Origin: Nostoc sp.
GTDB lineage: Bacteria > Cyanobacteriota > Cyanobacteriia > Cyanobacteriales > Nostocaceae
Reading direction: 5' to 3'
DNA length: 64,000 bases
NCBI GenBank assembly: GCA_036918135.1
Contig: JBALDB010000018.1
Coordinates: 1 to 64,000, forward strand
The notes beneath the pieces are model-generated. The model saw nothing but the letters and a program-made list of their open reading frames with translations. It searched no databases and was not told the origin of the DNA. A program made the translations under genes and the position numbers. This document shows, piece after piece, positions 33,318 through 44,045 of this stretch; positions within the stretch are counted from its first letter, which is position 1, and each line of letters opens with the position of its first letter.

Positions 33318-35993
33318 ATGGCTGATACAAACGGCAACGGTAGAAATGTCATTATTTTTGTGGCGGATGGATTGCGTAATGGTTCTGTAAACCCGACTGA
33401 CGCCCCAACTTTATATAGCATCCGCCAGCAGGGAGTTAATTTTACTAACAGTCATTCGCTATTTCCGACATTTACCACTCCGAATGCTTCGGCGATCGCC
33501 ACAGGACATTATCTTGGAGATACAGGTGACTTTAGCAATACTGTCTACACTGGTTTTCCTGTTCCTAATGCTAACGGCAGTGTCACACCATTCATCGAAA
33601 ATGATGCAGTTCTCGGAGATATTGACGAAAAGTTTCCTGGAAACAACTTTCTTGATGAAGAGTCACTGCTATCCTATGCACGGGCGCAAGGCTTCAATAC
33701 CGCTGCAATTGGTAAGCTAGGGCCAGTTGCCATCCAAGATGTCACACAAGTAAACCGAGATAGCGGCACTGATAGCAATATTCCCACCCCAGATACTGTA
33801 ATTATCGACGATCGCACAGGTGCAGCAGCTAATCCGGTAACAGGTTCACCTCAAGCTGTACCACTCGATCCTGATATAGCAGCTCGTCTAGAAGCAGTTG
33901 GCCTACCCACTACAACTCCTGGTAGAGGGGCAAATGGTAATTCTGGCAATAACACAACTCCTGGAACTACAGTTGCCAATGTTGACCAGCAACAGTTCTT
34001 TATCGATGCCACTACCAAGGCAGTTCTCCCGAAGTTTCAGACAGAGGATAAACCATTCGTATTGGTTTACTGGTCAAGAGACCCTGACGGAACTCAACAC
34101 AATCAAGGTGATAGCTTAAACAGTTTGACACCGGGCATCAATGGTGATACTTCCAAAGCTGGAATCAAGAATGCTGACAATAACTTAAAGCAGCTTCTTG
34201 ATTACCTCAAAAGTACAGGTTTGGACAAAACTACAGATGTCTTTATTACTGCTGACCACGGTTTTTCCACCATCAGCAAACAAGTTACTGATAACCAAGG
34301 CACAACAACAAATAGTTATGCTGCAACTCAAACCTACGCTGGTGTCAATCCTGGATTTCTACCACCAGGTTTTGTTGCGATTGATTTGGCTCACGATTTA
34401 AATCTACCTTTATACGATCCTGATAAAAATACAGTCACTCCTTTAGACATCGATAACATTCAGTATGCTGCTGTTGATGCAACACAAGGTCAACGCCCGA
34501 CAGCTGGGAATGGTGTAATTGGCGGTAGCGGTCAGGTAATTGATGGCCACCTCGACTCAGCCACAAAGGTAGTTGTAGCTGCTAACGGTGGTTCGGATCT
34601 GATTTATTTGCCCAATGGTAATGCTGACCTAGCCAAACAGGTAGTGAATTTGCTTTCGCAAAAAGACTACATCAGTGGTATTTTCGTAGATGACGCCTAT
34701 GGAAACATTCCAGGTGCTTTACCACTAAGTGCGATCGGGCTAAAAGGTAATGCTCAAACACCCGTTCCAGCGATTGTAATCAACTTCAAAACCTTTAGTA
34801 CCGACCCAAATAACCCAAACAACCCTCAAGCTGAGGTAGAGATTGCTGACACAGGCTTACAACAAGGGCAAGGGATGCATGGCAGTTTTGGTCGGGGCGA
34901 TACCTTCAATAACATGGAGGCTATTGGCCCTGATTTCAAATCAGGTTATGTAGACTATGCACCTGTCAGTAATGCTGACGTAACACCCACACTCGCTAAG
35001 ATTTTGGGTTTGAATATTCCTAGTAATGGCGATTTGAAAGGTCGTGCCATCACAGAGGCATTAGTGGGAGGGCCTGATTCAGTCTCCTTCACCCAAGGAA
35101 CCTTGACTTCAGAAGAAGCTGCTAACGGTCAAACAACAATTCTCAACTATCAGAGTGTAGGTAATACTCAGTACTTTACAGCAGCAGGGTTTGCCGATCG
35201 CACTGTTGGACTATCAACATTAGATGTTGATTTTGGTACTACAAGTAGCGATGATGTCACCCTCAAGTCAAACCAAACCTTATTCACAGGCGACGGAGCA
35301 GACTTTGTAGAAGGTACTACAGGTAACACAATCCAGACTGGCAATGGTGATGACACTGTATTGGTAGGCAGTAACTCTTCAGTATCCGCAGGAGACGGAG
35401 ATGATAATGTCTTTATTGGTCAAAATGGTGCTGCTAGCAATACCAGCGCTGATGGTGGCAATGGTGATGACCAAATCACAGTAATCGAAGCCAATGGTAG
35501 TAATAACCTATTTGGAGGCGCAGGTGCTGATACTCTGACAGTAGTTGAAGGTTCGCGTCAATTATCCTTTGGTGGTTCAGGTAAGGATACCCTCAAGAGT
35601 GAAGGTAGCAATAACCGTTTGTATGGTGGTTCTGGAGATGACAAACTCTTCTCTGGTGTCAATGACTTGTTGTTTGGTGGCGATGGCGATGATGTGCTAT
35701 TTGCTGGTCAAGGAGGTGGTAATAGCCTCAGTGGCGGTACTGGTGCAGACCAGTTTTGGATAGCCAATGGCAGTTTACCAACTAGCAACAACACCATTTC
35801 TGACTTCAGCATCGGTGTTGACAAAATTGGACTTGGTGGTATTGGTGTCACTCAATTTAGTGCCTTAACTCTATTGCAACAAGGTAGTGACACTTTAGTG
35901 AAAATCGGAAATACACAGTTGGCTTCATTAGTTGGAATTACCTCAACTAGCCTTACAGCAAATGACTTTGTTTTTGCTGCTAGTGTGATTTAG
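33318..35993 (+). CDS. alkaline phosphatase-superfamily nucleotide pyrophosphatase/phosphodiesterase with RTX tail
   Basis: [15 protein letters not shown] (catalytic Thr), DPDGTQH, TADHG, GMHG. Confidence 0.88.
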
Positions 35994-36274
35994 CCAAAAG
36001 ATGATTACAGCTTAAATTCAATATTCCAAATTAACTAATGCTGTAATGATTTTGCTTATACGAGGGAGTGATACTCCTTCGCTTTTTATATGAGCAACGT
36101 GAAACCCAACATGGATAAGGATGTTGGGTTTTCTAATTGTGGAGTGGGTGTCTCAGTTGTCTGGAACAAAAGACGGGTAAGATACCTACCCCACAAGATT
36201 AGATAATTTATTTGTTGGAAGTCCTTAATACTTACTCTCATAACCTACGCTAATCCGTATTTGTTCAAAAAATT

Positions 36275-36323
36275 TGTAGTATCTCCTTGACAATATGTAT
36301 TTTATATATTACAAATGTAGTAT
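36275..36323 (+). promoter_or_regulatory. promoter with two TGTAGTAT operator boxes
   Basis: TGTAGTAT at 36275-36282 and 36316-36323 flanking TTGACA (36287-36292) and TACAAA 17 bp downstream. Confidence 0.65.
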
Positions 36324-36365
36324 GAGAACAAAAGCTTTTCTAAAAGGCTAAGGCAAAACATCTCA

Positions 36366-36385
36366 GAACCTAGAAAACCGAATAG
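36366..36385 (+). promoter_or_regulatory. rrn-type boxA antitermination-like element
   Basis: GAACCTAGAAAACCGAATAG resembles the cyanobacterial rRNA ITS boxA (GAACCTTGAAAA) and following motif; small hairpin upstream. Confidence 0.6.
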
Positions 36386-36401
36386 CAAGTTACGACTTTT
36401 T

Positions 36402-36482
36402 GGGGTCGCGATTGGTGTTCGACTGCTCCGAAACCAACAAACGGACGGTAGCAGGATTCGGGTTCAATTCCCGACGACTCCA
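36402..36482 (+). ncRNA. mini-tmRNA (tRNA-like domain only, no tag reading frame)
   Basis: GGGGTCG/CGACTCC-A acceptor with G3.U70; tmRNA-type D region TGGTGTTCGAC; T arm TCGGG-TTCAATT-CCCGA; short helix 2. Confidence 0.8.
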
Positions 36483-36499
36483 CTGACTTCTACTTGTTT

Positions 36500-36706
36500 G
36501 GGTCTGTAACTCTAATGGTAGAGCGCCCAGATTCACTTGTGCTCTGACAGAAAAAGCTTACATACTTGCTCAAAGGTAGAGCGATCGTCTCTAAAACGAT
36601 AAGTGCAGGTTCAATTCCTGCGGTGTAACCACAGCTTTTTCAACTCGCACGAAGTGTGAGTGCAACTCTCACAGGGAAGGTATCGGTTCAATTCCGATCA
36701 GATCCA
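36500..36706 (+). ncRNA. handle RNA 1: Ala-identity tRNA shell whose anticodon arm holds a handle carrying a second tRNA-like body (CUA anticodon)
   Basis: Outer GGGTCTG/CAGATCC-A with D and T arms; handle 36539-36650; inner cloverleaf 36558-36631. Confidence 0.8.
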
Positions 36707-36732
36707 CTAAATAATTTGTAATTCGTAATTAA

Positions 36733-36948
<216 letters not shown>

Positions 36949-36961
36949 AATATTTAGTTAA

Positions 36962-37141
36962 CCATGCCCTAACAGAAGAAGCATACATACACATTCATAA
37001 CGATCCTAAGGTAGTAAAATTCGAGCGATCAAACTAGCGAAGTATGATTTATAAATTTTTTGCAGATTTAGCATACGTGCCCACTGCCAATAGTTGGTAA
37101 GAGCGATCGTAAGCTGTAAAAAGCTTCTTAAACTTGTACGG
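36962..37141 (+). ncRNA. handle RNA 2: circularly permuted 23S rRNA domain IV (H67-H71) mimic
   Basis: Handle motifs at both ends; ATAACGATCCTAAGGTAGTAAAATTC (36997-37022) resembles 23S 1916-1941; 37078-37112 resembles truncated H68 plus the H69 5' strand. Confidence 0.75.
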
Positions 37142-37156
37142 ATTAATTGAAGAATT

Positions 37157-37300
37157 AATTCCGCGCCCTGACTTGTAAAGCATACAAACATATATCCGGT
37201 AACGGAATACAGGTTCGATTCCTGTCGCTCCCTTTGATGGGAGCGTAGCCAAATTGGTAAAGGCAACTGTGAAAACTGCTTTGCTAACTTGTGCGGAATT
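37157..37300 (+). ncRNA. handle RNA 3: YrlA-like RNA with a circularly permuted class II tRNA domain
   Basis: Order: variable arm, T arm, acceptor stem CGCTCCC-tttgat-GGGAGCG closed by a loop, D arm; enclosed by the handle. Confidence 0.85.
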
Positions 37301-37361
37301 TCAATTATTTAAAATAGTAGTGTTTAGAGCAAGCCTTAGTGATTTTTCAAAACTAAAACTT

Positions 37362-37491
<130 letters not shown>

Positions 37492-37649
37492 TATAAATAT
37501 TAGATTTGGCAAAATTTTGATTGAGTGGAGGAAACTTATGCTCAAAGCTTTTAAAGACAGATTTTAAATAAAAAATCTTAATTTTAAAGCTATTAACTGG
37601 AATTAAAAACAATACTATTTATTGCAATTTAATATGATTTGAGGCTGCT

Positions 37650-38030
37650 ATGTCTGTGAACACTCTAGAAATTTTAGAGCAAATCAAGTCTCTAAATGTC
37701 AATGAAACCGCTCAATTAGTAAAGCAGATTGAAGCAACTTTCAATGTCGATATATCCACACCTAAATTCCTTAAGATTGACAAGCGAGATGAGGATGAAA
37801 CTCAACCGCAGATTCAAACGGAATTTGATGTCTTGTTGGTATCGGTTCCAACAGAGAAAAAGATTGCCTTACTCAAGGTCATCCGGACGGTGACTGGACT
37901 GGGACTCAAAGAAGCAAAAGACTTTGTAGAATCCCTGCCTCAAGTAGTTCAAGCAGGACTGAATCAAGAAGCGGCTGAAATTCTTAAGCAGCAGCTAGAG
38001 GAAACAGGAGCAGTTGTTTCTCTGATGTAA
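37650..38030 (+). CDS. rplL: ribosomal protein L7/L12 paralogue
   Basis: QTEFDVLL, KKIALLKVIRTVTGLGLKEAKDFVES; not next to rplJ; atypical charged hinge. Confidence 0.9.
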   Translation: MSVNTLEILEQIKSLNVNETAQLVKQIEATFNVDISTPKFLKIDKRDEDETQPQIQTEFDVLLVSVPTEKKIALLKVIRTVTGLGLKEAKDFVESLPQVVQAGLNQEAAEILKQQLEETGAVVSLM

Positions 38031-38095: not shown

Positions 38096-38207
38096 GGCAG
38101 TTGTTGCTGCGCCCCGATAGCAGAAGCTTACATAACTCTGCATAAGTTATACACGATGCTTCTACAACTTGCGTGGTGACTGTATCGCCCCGCGTGCAAC
38201 ATCTGCC
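38096..38207 (+). ncRNA. handle RNA 5: minimal version with a lone anticodon-like stem-loop
   Basis: Handle 38107-38176; cargo ATAACT-CTGCATA-AGTTAT; outer helix GGCAG.TGTTGC/GCAACA.CTGCC. Confidence 0.75.
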
Positions 38208-38223
38208 TCCTCATCCATCATAA

Positions 38224-39672
<1,449 letters not shown>

Positions 39673-41240: not shown

Positions 41241-41549
<309 letters not shown>

Positions 41550-41707
41550 TGAAATCATTCTGCGTATGCAGATAAAGGTTTTGATGCTCTGAGTAATTTA
41601 GCTTTTTTGTCTTTGTTGAAATAAGGCTGTAAATTAAAGGGTTTAAGATCCGCTTTGTAGGCATAACTAGCAGCCAAAATATTTACCGGAAAGTAACAAG
41701 TGTTAAT

Positions 41708-41725
41708 TGTAGTATAATGTAGTAT
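41708..41725 (+). promoter_or_regulatory. tandem TGTAGTAT boxes overlapping a TATAAT -10 element
   Basis: TGTAGTATaaTGTAGTAT; TATAAT at 41713-41718, just upstream of handle RNA 6. Confidence 0.7.
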
Positions 41726-41735
41726 TAGAATCTCA

Positions 41736-41938
41736 TGCGTGCCCCAACTCGTGGAGCCTACATATTAGTACGAGAGGAAGGTAACACTGCCGAATGCAGT
41801 GGGCGTTAGTGAACGGGGAGTGCGAAGAACCTGGAAAGTGGGCTTAGAAGTAGCCATCTTTGAAAGAGTGTGTAACAACTCACCAGCGGAGTCCCTCTAG
41901 TAACTGAGAAAACGCAATGCTCCACCAACTTGCACGCA
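41736..41938 (+). ncRNA. handle RNA 6: sarcin-ricin loop plus GTPase-associated centre (H42-H44) mimic
   Basis: AGTACGAGAGGA at 41767-41778; 41830-41887 colinear with 23S 1051-1108; handle TGCGTGC/GCACGCA. Confidence 0.85.
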
Positions 41939-42551: not shown

Positions 42552-43382
42552 ATGACTGACATCCGTAAGCTAATCAACCAAATTGCTAGCGCAGAAGCAC
42601 AGTTGTGTAATACTCAATTTCTTGCGCCTTGTGTAAAAGGTGGACGAGTTCGCACACGAGTAGTAGGGATGGTCTATACCTTCACACCAAAGCCGAATAA
42701 ATTTGAAGGTTGGGGTATTTTTCAGCCGGTGGATGAGAAGATAGCAATGGTTGTGGAAGAGGCAGATTTACCTCAAATTGCCGAATACCTGCAACACTTT
42801 CCCCAAATACGGCTGCGGCTAGCATACCAACTGCGGGGACAAAGTTGGTTAGCATACCCCGTGAATGAAGCAGATATACGTCAACGGTTGCAGGTGGTTA
42901 AACCGATCGCCATTCATCTAGTAACTGAAAGTATTATTTTTGACCAAATCATCGCCCGTTGGAATGGACAGTCCTGCTGGTTTGAGGAAATCGATCATCG
43001 TACCGATCCGGCTATTGTTGAAACTCTGCAATCAGCTGTTAAGCAACTGATTCCCGTTGAAGAATTGCAATTTAAAGGCATAACGCCAGAAATTCGCACA
43101 GTCTATGAATTAGCAACACGGCAAATTGAAGGCTTTGGGCAACCCCAACAGGATGAAAAGCGATTGAGAAAGGCATTGCAGATGGGTGGCGGTGAATTAA
43201 AGCAGTTTCACGATCGCGGTGATTACTGGACAGTGGACTGGACAACTGCTGATGGTGTTCGCCACAGTAGTGCGATCGCCAAAACTGACTTGACTGTAAT
43301 CAGTTCTGGTATTTGCCTAAGTGGATACGATCGCAACTTTGACTTGCAATCGTTAGTTGGTGTAATGGAACAACAAGAGTAG
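42552..43382 (+). CDS. hypothetical protein with C-terminal SGICLSG motif, directly upstream of ThiF
   Basis: 276-aa ORF, 24 bp upstream of the ThiF gene; family not recognised. Confidence 0.85.
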   Translation: MTDIRKLINQIASAEAQLCNTQFLAPCVKGGRVRTRVVGMVYTFTPKPNKFEGWGIFQPVDEKIAMVVEEADLPQIAEYLQHFPQIRLRLAYQLRGQSWLAYPVNEADIRQRLQVVKPIAIHLVTESIIFDQIIARWNGQSCWFEEIDHRTDPAIVETLQSAVKQLIPVEELQFKGITPEIRTVYELATRQIEGFGQPQQDEKRLRKALQMGGGELKQFHDRGDYWTVDWTTADGVRHSSAIAKTDLTVISSGICLSGYDRNFDLQSLVGVMEQQE

Positions 43383-43406
43383 TAAGTGTATTAATTACGA
43401 ATTATT

Positions 43407-44045
43407 ATGAGTATCTTTTTTCACGAACAGCTTTACCGCAGCAATGCTGTGATGGCAAAGTTGAAAAACTATCCTGTAACAATTTGTGGGGCGGGGGCGT
43501 TAGGGGCTAATATTGCTGAGAATATGGCTCGGTCTGGTTTTGATAAACTGACAGTAATCGATTGCGATCGCATTGAGGAGCGTAATCTTTCCACCCAGCC
43601 TTACTACCGTTCCGATGTTGGAGCATTCAAAGCAAAAATATTGGCAAACAATTTATACCGAGCAATTGGTACTAAAGTTGATGCTAAAACCAAAGAATTG
43701 ACATCAGCAAATGTCAATCAACTACTCCAAGATAGTCAATTAATTATTGATGCTTTTGACAATAGCGTAGCACGTCAATTAGTAAAAGATTATGCCACTC
43801 AATTTAGCATTCCTTGTCTTCATGCTGGGCTAGCAGTTGATTATGCAGAGGTAATTTGGAATGATGTTTATCGCGTTCCTTCTGAGGTTAATGATGATGT
43901 TTGTGATTATCCTTTGGCACGAAACTTAGTAATATTAACCGTTGCTGTAGTATCGGAAGCGATTGTTTCATTTATTGCCACAACAGAACGGCGTAACTTC
44001 ACCATCACTTTGAAGGATTTGACTGTTCAACCTTTGTTTTTGTAG
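43407..44045 (+). CDS. ThiF/MoeB/E1-like adenylyltransferase
   Basis: GAGALG, D.DRIEERNLSTQ, KA, IIDAFDN..AR; lacks CxxC zinc pairs. Confidence 0.92.
   Translation: MSIFFHEQLYRSNAVMAKLKNYPVTICGAGALGANIAENMARSGFDKLTVIDCDRIEERNLSTQPYYRSDVGAFKAKILANNLYRAIGTKVDAKTKELTSANVNQLLQDSQLIIDAFDNSVARQLVKDYATQFSIPCLHAGLAVDYAEVIWNDVYRVPSEVNDDVCDYPLARNLVILTVAVVSEAIVSFIATTERRNFTITLKDLTVQPLFL

Follow-up and report, generated by a model that had tools for sequence, protein, structure and literature searches.

Y RNAs tether the protein Ro60 to its partners, and some of them mimic transfer RNA (tRNA). A 2018 preprint by Wang et al. (10.1101/312249) is reportedly a further source on bacterial Y RNAs of the YrlA type. 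According to Chen et al. 2014 (PMC4201824), the YrlA of M. smegmatis is cut by RNase P and receives CCA, YrlA lies beside a 533-aa Ro protein in Nostoc punctiforme and others (supplementary survey), and the Ro-binding motif of Y RNAs is GNCGAAN0-1G. Here we describe an RNA of a different build, encoded by Nostoc sp. (GenBank assembly GCA_036918135.1) at 36500-36706 of a 64,000-nucleotide (nt) stretch of contig JBALDB010000018.1 (positions 1 to 64,000, forward strand; hereafter the window). In this element a tRNA-like shell encloses a stem, the handle, which in turn bears a second tRNA-like module, and a gene for a Ro60-like protein lies downstream. We document the anatomy, conservation and boundaries of the element, the covariation of most of its helices and its linkage to the Ro60-like gene, and we give a probability of about 0.5 to the reading of 36500-36706 as a single non-coding RNA of composite build that belongs to a Ro60-like (TROVE plus vWA) system. 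All coordinates are those of the window unless a contig is named, the features are collected in Table 1, and numbers with G, C and L are our handles for genomes, contigs and loci.

A tRNA-like shell around a handle and an inner module

Read along the forward strand, the element runs from GGGTCTG through TA, a D arm and CCCAG to a short linker and then the 5' strand of the handle. The shell displays three tRNA features, namely a 7-bp acceptor, a T stem of 5 bp closed by a TTCRANY loop and a D arm that contains GG; its T arm at 36682-36698 reads ATCGG-TTCAATT-CCGAT. Where a tRNA would have its anticodon loop, the shell has a three-way junction comprising the handle stem, the tRNA-like module and a small hairpin. 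In the minimum-free-energy fold of 36500-36706 (z = -3.3), the acceptor and T arm of the shell form together with the inner cloverleaf, and none of 200 shuffles gave an equally stable fold. An alternative helix in that fold, AGAGCGC/GTGCTCT, was rejected as it is not kept, relatives carrying C where this copy of the element has T44.

We confirm the nested arrangement. Every feature listed by an initial annotation, made from the letters of the window, could be located in the sequence, including G3:U70, A73, the handle, the inner cloverleaf and the hairpin. The same annotation had spoken of a tRNA inside a handle inside a tRNA; the nesting holds, whereas the inner tRNA is not a fixed part, since four copies from another order bear a tip hairpin only. 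Its remark that the insert does not look like a group I or II intron agrees with the Rfam matches down to E = 10 within 35800-37800, which include no intron family. The inner module is called tRNA(cta) by ARAGORN and scores 49.8 bits with the Rfam tRNA model. On 36500-36706, the Rfam scan gives no tmRNA (transfer-messenger RNA) match and no YrlA (RF02553) match, and an ARAGORN tmRNA search likewise finds none.

Conservation, boundaries and variation

The whole element occurs in 28 of 36 genomes of the same genus at 88-98% identity. A search of the family with a covariance model of 63 pairs and 209 positions found copies that cover every model position and score at least 214 bits in 24 of 151 genomes (own included), which span many genera. 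A 24-nt pattern from the 5' half hits 103 places in species-representative genomes, in records titled Nostoc, Anabaena, Scytonema, Tolypothrix, Cuspidothrix, Sphaerospermopsis, Aulosira, Desmonostoc, Amazonocrinis, Vacuolonema and a Leptolyngbyaceae metagenome-assembled genome, and a full copy of at least 214 bits is present in 75 of the 80 loci fetched from these places. A 21-nt pattern from the 3' half matches in 14 of 401 genomes of the phylum, own included, two of which belong to another family of another order. Outside the family, four copies take a short form of about 165 nt (two in G274, the others in G466 and at Vacuolonema L138), in which shell, handle and hairpin are kept and a plain hairpin replaces the inner tRNA. 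These copies without an inner tRNA argue that the latter is an exchangeable tip and that shell, handle and hairpin form the core. The initial annotation would have been contradicted had the shell halves not been conserved around the handle in relatives; on the side of conservation, they are.

The limits of the element were drawn from column entropy in 51 copies found by the covariance model, not by a sequence pattern. Over the 17 columns that precede position -3, entropy lies at 1.2-1.9 bits; it then falls to 0.53, 0.14 and 0.00 bits at -3, -2 and -1 (C, T, T), with T, hence U in the RNA, at -1 in 51/51 copies and T at -2 in 50/51. It stays at 0.00 and 0.02 in the two acceptor strands, averages 0.19 over the element and rises again past A73. 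Because entropy drops there while the flanks vary, the conserved block starts at G1 of the shell.

The most variable stretch inside the element is the inner anticodon loop (36589-36595), with 0.86 bits and 22 variants in 51 copies, 6-nt loops among them; CTCTAAA, which gives the anticodon CUA, is present in 23 of the 51. Since this loop varies most, the inner module is not a conserved suppressor or decoding tRNA, and its variability could reflect either an absence of constraint or diversifying selection. The ACCAC that follows the inner module is encoded in 49/51 copies and the bulged G of the handle is present in 50/51. In the inner acceptor, pair 1:72 is nonstandard in 41/50 copies and one base is bulged.

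Related RNAs also occur outside this setting. Handle-plus-tRNA modules and shell copies lie in or beside long tRNA-gene arrays (L067 on G065:C24, L068 on G184:C291, L226/L227 in G274), far from the Ro60-like gene, and some handle RNAs there are followed by a 3' half resembling the mini tmRNA-like domain described below. Model matches of 55-90 bits that appeared full-length in a second clade of Ro60-like loci were rejected as handle-plus-tRNA modules with forced flanks.

Covariation supports most helices

Covariation was assessed on 77 distinct copies, most of them fetched by a pattern on one shell half. Standard pairs fill 95.6% of the cells, compared with 30-50% in slid controls, and 17 pairs change on both sides, versus 3.3 ± 1.4 in shuffles, of which 0/500 reach 17. 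These covarying pairs are distributed over the lower handle (5), the upper handle (2), the junction-closing stem (2), the extra hairpin (3), the outer T stem (1), the inner D stem (1) and the inner anticodon stem (3). Within the shell, 100% of the acceptor cells, 99.5% of the T-stem cells and 89.6% of the D-stem cells are paired. In the outer T stem, 49:65 goes from A-U to G-C in one copy and 50:64 is U-A or U-G, and the Vacuolonema copy L138 has three extra-hairpin pairs swapped for other standard pairs.

In a second set, of 50 distinct copies found by the covariance model, the acceptor is again 100% paired, with a single change from U-A to U-G. Its strand at 36500-36506 is invariant in 50/50 of these copies and the acceptor is invariant in 77/77 of the wider set, an invariance that shows strong sequence constraint. 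Given a MAFFT alignment of 29 copies, RNAalifold independently recovers the acceptor, D arm and T arm of the shell along with the CCC/GGG stem, the handle and the hairpin; the inner acceptor is not among its predictions.

Alanine-type and tmRNA-type ends

The pair 3:70 of the shell is G:U in 77/77 distinct copies; another stem pair in the same set varies (G-C in 49, G-U in 27, A-U in 1). A73 is present in 76/77, the exception being L186 with G. Elsewhere in this genome, G3:U70 marks tRNA-Ala (three clear cases among 70 ARAGORN tRNAs) and tmRNA. With G3:U70, A73 and G2:C71 on its acceptor end, the shell has, at the sequence level, the features that define a substrate of alanyl-tRNA synthetase (AlaRS). 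Francklyn and Schimmel are said to have found in 1989 that a G3:U70 alanine minihelix of this kind suffices for AlaRS, which would make charging biochemically plausible once the ends are made.

The shell also resembles the genome's own tmRNA (128.6 bits), which has the acceptor GGGTCCG/CGGATCC, A73 and the trailer CTA. The shell's GGGTCTG/CAGATCC, A73 and CTA are the same save one compensated pair, so the tmRNA-like architecture proposed in the initial annotation has a stronger basis than was claimed for it. CCA is not encoded past A73 of the shell, where the trailer CTA follows.

A further element, (a), ends 14 nt upstream of the shell and is a mini version of the tRNA-like domain of tmRNA, with a UUCGAC motif and a T arm; where tmRNA has its message part, it has only a short stem that is closed. 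It scores 43.2 bits with the Rfam tmRNA model (E 2.3e-15), under the gathering score of 47, and its fold has z = -2.8. A strict structural search places it upstream of 24/51 shell copies, and its pair 5:68 covaries (T-A or C-G) with G3:U70 retained. In other relatives it is absent or its T loop is interrupted, with an insertion of about 22 nt in the T loop of some; in genomes without it, the promoter runs straight into the shell.

A Ro60-like neighbour and a handle shared by five RNAs

The 477-aa product of a gene 1.5 kb downstream of the shell RNA in the window is a member of a family publicly named only "vWA domain-containing" or "hypothetical", and Pfam detects its vWA domain only, not TROVE. 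A phmmer search relates it to PDB entry 9l5y, "TROVE domain-containing protein" (E 4.2e-4), and a profile of 31 homologs (27-62% identical) reaches human Ro60 (9nen, 2.7e-16), Xenopus Ro (1yvp, 1.6e-12), 9l5y (2.6e-10) and D. radiodurans Rsr (2nvo, 1.1e-6); seven of the 31 homologs match Pfam vWA_Ro60. The gene is linked to the RNA: 20/24 element-bearing genomes of the family have an intact, full-length Ro60-like gene on the strand of the element, 0.5-2.6 kb downstream of it, and in the remaining four it is in two frames, a truncated piece, on another contig or not found (one each). The linkage is also seen in G466 and G566, outside the family. The 477-aa paralog and its RNAs are a set different from the 533-aa Ro and YrlA of the 2014 survey.

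Five RNAs of the cluster, (b) to (f), share a handle motif in which a lower stem ends in GYGC, a loop CCYRAYN faces AACTY and an upper stem follows; the shell RNA is (b). Together with the Ro60/Rsr-like identity of the neighbouring protein in profile searches, this fits the Y-like character that had been attributed to the RNA from sequence. The YrlA match of element (c) falls under the gathering score of 69, and element (d) scores 85 bits with covariance model R1 over model positions 36-159 only. Element (f) resembles two sites of 23S ribosomal RNA (rRNA). Its 56 nt at 41831-41886 match the Rfam LSU model at 51 bits over model positions 1093-1148, which are 23S helices 43/44 of the GTPase-associated centre, and its 13-mer TAGTACGAGAGGA at 41766-41778 is found in two relatives only in 23S rRNA, about 250 nt from the 3' end, and beside the Ro60-like gene. 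We take the 23S site that matches TAGTACGAGAGGA to be the sarcin-ricin loop.

Two further traces of Ro60-type genes were noted. Part of a second Ro60-like gene (41331-41585; residues 249-333, 68% identical, one TGA) sits between an acyltransferase gene and element (f). On contig C32 of this genome (G000; 93600-95400), a 590-aa open frame has Pfam TROVE matches of 35.3 and 27.2 bits, over the curated cut-off, and is adjoined by a weak T-arm-like RNA match; because of this TROVE match, the genome may have two Ro60 systems.

Promoter and transcript contigs

The promoter-like element upstream of (a) and the shell is overlapped by the inverted repeat TATTACA-AA-TGTAGTA (36307-36322). TTGACA-N17-TACA(T/A)(T/A) with TACTACA..TGTAGTA is found upstream in 6/8 relatives inspected; of the other two, L063 has the repeat only, its sequence being cut at the start, and L021 has neither. 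A consensus promoter scan missed the site in the window because its -10 box ends in A. The inverted repeat TACTACA-N2-TGTAGTA looks like an operator site. A similar TGTAGTA motif (41700-41736) precedes the rRNA-mimic RNA (f). No terminator-like site was seen around the element between the promoter with its leader and the downstream 66-aa open reading frame (ORF).

RNA-sequencing contigs come from three runs of one study on one relative and are uninformative on transcript ends or levels. In X1 and X2, two of the three runs, element (a) and 36498-36626/36634 share a contig. No contig covers about 36635-36738, and the next start at 36739-36749.

Other genes of the cluster

The 66-aa ORF directly downstream of the shell is detected by tblastn in 53/55 loci, at full length in 52, and in 18/18 further loci. 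Its AlphaFold model has a pLDDT (predicted local distance difference test score) of 87, and the sole PDB matches are weak ubiquitin-like folds (E ~0.2, TM-score ~0.5), a Foldseek search yielding no match at E <= 0.001; in a protein atlas it falls in unnamed cyanobacterial clusters only. An L7/L12 paralog lies inside the Ro60-like cluster in 8/18 related loci examined, one of them from another order. The genes for the 276-aa and ThiF-like proteins are downstream of the Ro60-like gene in 4/4 family genomes tested and were not found in G466, the sole genome of another order tested. PADLOC has no match for the Ro60-like protein, the L12 paralog, the 66-aa ORF or the 276-aa ORF; the ThiF-like protein alone matches, to E1-E2 models.

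Table 1. Coordinates in the window of the shell RNA, its parts and the surrounding features.
Feature	Coordinates	Strand	Description
Shell RNA (b), "Matryoshka"	36500-36706	+	207 nt; shell, handle, inner tRNA-like module
Outer shell, 5' half	36500-36530	+	acceptor strand 36500-36506; U8 A9; D arm 36509-36524; 5' strand of anticodon-like stem 36526-36530
Outer acceptor	36500-36506 / 36699-36705	+	GGGTCTG / CAGATCC; 7 bp; G3:U70; A73 = 36706
Junction-closing stem	36526-36530 / 36672-36676	+	CCC(A)G / C(A)GGG; read from sequence
Handle, 5' strand	36534-36558	+	lower CACTTGTGC 36534-36542; internal loop TCTGACA 36543-36549; upper GAAAAAGCT 36550-36558
Inner tRNA-like module	36559-36628	+	followed by CCAC to 36632; ACCAC with A36628 included
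Handle, 3' strand	36633-36656	+	upper AGCTTTTTC 36633-36641; loop AACTC 36642-36646; lower GCACGAAGTG 36647-36656 with bulged G
Extra hairpin	36657-36671	+	TGAG-TGCAACT-CTCA; extendable by one G-C pair per side (36656-36672)
Outer shell, 3' half	36672-36706	+	stem 36672-36676; 5-nt variable loop; T arm 36682-36698; acceptor 36699-36705; A73
Ro60/Rsr-like protein	38239-39672	+	477 aa; TROVE-like ring and vWA domain with MIDAS (metal-ion-dependent adhesion site) residues
Promoter-like element	36287-36322	+	TTGACA 36287-36292; 17 nt; TACAAA 36310-36315
Element (a), mini tmRNA-like tRNA-like domain	36402-36485	+	84 nt; acceptor GGGGTCG/CGACTCC; G3:U70; A73
Conserved 66-aa ORF	36748-36948	+	directly downstream of shell; ends ...RPEAVYG
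Element (c), handle RNA with permuted YrlA-type tRNA-like domain	37158-37299	+	YrlA 24.1 bits, E 0.031, at 37208-37264
Element (d), handle and tRNA-like module without outer shell	37363-37490	+	ARAGORN tRNA(gcg) 37389-37463
Second L7/L12 gene	37650-38030		passes TIGR00855; 50% identical to the genome's other L12 (contig C27)
Element (e), handle capped by plain hairpin	38104-38179	+	GYGC-CCYRAYN / AACTT-GYRC motif
Element (f), handle RNA with rRNA-like payload	41737-41937	+	resembles two 23S rRNA sites
276-aa protein and 212-aa ThiF/E1-like adenylyltransferase	42552-44045		276-aa protein without family match

A proposed composite RNA and its rivals

Read as one composite RNA, the element would be transcribed from the conserved upstream promoter, in this genome jointly with element (a). 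By pairing, its two ends would form a tRNA-like minihelix of acceptor and T arm, to which a D arm is added, and such ends would probably lead RNase P to cut at G1 and RNase Z to cut past A73, with the CCA-adding enzyme completing the 3' end. The handle stem and its internal loop are the putative binding site of the neighbouring Ro60-like protein, and the module at the tip of the handle would be exchangeable, being a tRNA-like domain in this genome and, in another order, a plain hairpin. The shell may then act as an acceptor-end mimic of tmRNA or tRNA-Ala, either by being charged with alanine by AlaRS or by being bound by a factor that reads the acceptor end, and the Ro60-like particle would thereby be linked to the translation apparatus. 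Alanine charging of the shell in vivo, a step that we propose tentatively, is about as likely as not, or slightly less so.

Several observations weigh against the composite reading. ARAGORN, whose output the initial annotation had put forward as a check, does not call the outer shell with or without introns (0-300 nt allowed), and Rfam has no match to the shell and none spanning the whole of 36500-36706. The shell has U at position 14 in all copies. Since tRNAs have A14, and as RNAalifold closes the D loop further, the shell core may not be a faithful L shape. Being invariant, the outer acceptor offers no covariation, so that the argument for its pairing is one of perfect complementarity and conservation only, and one shell half is invariant by selection in the 77-copy set because most copies were fetched by a pattern there. 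The presence of both shell halves in one transcript is a point that we infer. The 5' strand of the handle, GYGC-CCYRAYN-G, differs from the published Y RNA motif GNCGAAN0-1G. Finally, some loci whose Ro60-like gene is closely related lack the element (G099, G156 and G192 among them), and it was not found in 20 loci of the second clade, whose Ro60-like proteins are 72-81% identical; a strict finder (perfect 7-bp acceptor plus T arm) applied upstream of these 20 genes returned none with G3:U70. Degenerate copies with a replaced 5' half occur in G178, G137 and G129, and at least those of G178 and G137 adjoin broken Ro60-like genes.

The same features could be accounted for if the shell were a processing or stability device only, whose ends recruit RNase P and RNase Z and are never charged. 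A Y-like RNA would then be cut from a long operon transcript and have its ends protected, in the manner of tRNA punctuation or mascRNA-type processing, and the alanine features would be inherited from an ancestral tRNA-like domain. The position of the element between a promoter with leader and a conserved ORF, without a terminator-like site between them, fits such a device, as do the start of conservation at G1 with U at -1 and the precedent of M. smegmatis YrlA, which is processed by RNase P with no charging known (PMC4201824). Processing would, however, need a helix rather than a fixed sequence, yet the seven acceptor pairs are invariant while other helices drift, the G:U becomes neither G-C nor A-U in any of the 77 copies, and likeness to the genome's own tmRNA acceptor would be unnecessary. 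We regard a purely processing role as somewhat unlikely.

We consider it improbable that the inner module is instead excised, with RNase P cutting its 5' end and a 3' nuclease its ACCA end, leaving either a free small tRNA-like RNA together with a base-paired two-piece shell and handle, as in two-piece tmRNAs, or separate fragments with fates of their own. The handle does abut inner position 1 like a paired leader and trailer, the ACCAC tail is encoded in nearly every copy, and the module scores as a tRNA with both ARAGORN and Rfam. Its acceptor is weak, however, with the frequent nonstandard 1:72 pair, the bulged base and no RNAalifold prediction, and an encoded CCA is known to block RNase Z. 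Because copies of another order that lack the inner tRNA keep shell and handle, the core design is in any case independent of excision. That the whole is a relic or accident, a tRNA-like or tmRNA-like gene split by a mobile Y-like module with the shell halves left functionless, is extremely improbable. Handle-plus-tRNA modules are indeed multicopy per genome, some of them in tRNA arrays far from the Ro60-like gene, and the 5' half is lost in some copies; the shell halves are nonetheless the best conserved parts, with entropy of 0.00-0.09 versus 1.2-1.9 in the flanks, and they persist in two orders, where the closing stem and the T stem show compensatory changes.

Beyond the composite RNA, a particle mimicking the translation machinery is suggested because the cluster holds the 66-aa ORF, the L7/L12 paralog, the RNA with rRNA sites and the 276-aa and ThiF-like proteins. 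The Ro60-like particle would display such mimics on a common handle as bait, decoy or GTPase dock, with the shell truly charged with alanine, a scheme that we think unlikely in this full form. The parts on display may be the alanine/tmRNA-type acceptor, tRNA-like domains in which the anticodon loop changes faster than any other part of the RNA, the mini tmRNA-like domain, the two 23S sites and, in about half of the loci, the L7/L12 paralog. They would serve either to lure enzymes directed against tRNA, tmRNA or rRNA (toxins or phage factors, for instance) or to dock translation GTPases; damage or binding would be converted into a response by the vWA domain together with the small ubiquitin-like protein and the E1-like enzyme, and alanine charging would make the shell look like a live aminoacyl-tRNA.

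Comparison with known systems

A full-text literature search of limited coverage returned no description of a Y RNA inside a tRNA-like shell, nor of this Ro60 paralog. Were the shell RNA to undergo processing and charging, it would join tmRNA as the second natural class of alanyl-accepting RNA whose payload is not a tRNA, and it would tie a Ro60 particle physically and directly to the translation apparatus. The family lends itself to testing, as its size and ends are well defined and a single base pair is diagnostic.

The shell RNA resembles tRNA-Ala and alanine minihelices in G1:C72, G2:C71, G3:U70 and A73, and in stacking a 7-bp acceptor upon a T stem of 5 bp whose loop reads TTCAAT(C/T); unlike tRNA-Ala, it has no anticodon loop, has U14 and is 207 nt long. 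As in cyanobacterial tRNA genes with group I introns, a tRNA-shaped gene is interrupted in the anticodon region, but the insert of about 145 nt has no group I or II match and its removal leaves no anticodon loop. With tmRNA (RF00023) it shares an acceptor/T-arm domain with G3:U70 and A73 and the replacement of the anticodon side by a large payload. It differs from tmRNA in having no tag reading frame and no pseudoknots, its payload being a putative protein-binding stem and not a message, and in having a true D stem, which tmRNA is not known to have.

Like YrlA (RF02553), the shell RNA is non-coding, stands beside a Ro60-family gene and combines a protein-binding stem, putative in its own case, with a tRNA-like domain that has T and D arms. 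YrlA builds its Ro-binding stem from its own 5' and 3' ends and places the tRNA-like domain distally, with the acceptor closed, an arrangement that element (c), not the shell RNA, displays. In the shell RNA, by contrast, the ends form an open 7-bp alanine-type acceptor and the handle is internal, at the place of the anticodon loop; the partner also differs from that of YrlA, being a divergent 477-aa paralog missed by Pfam TROVE. By their defining tests the shell RNA falls outside the Y RNA, tmRNA and tRNA families, yet it joins features of Y RNA and tmRNA. Overall, the known Y RNA design is inverted here, with free ends that form an alanine-type acceptor kept across two cyanobacterial orders and a Ro60-type stem at the anticodon place.

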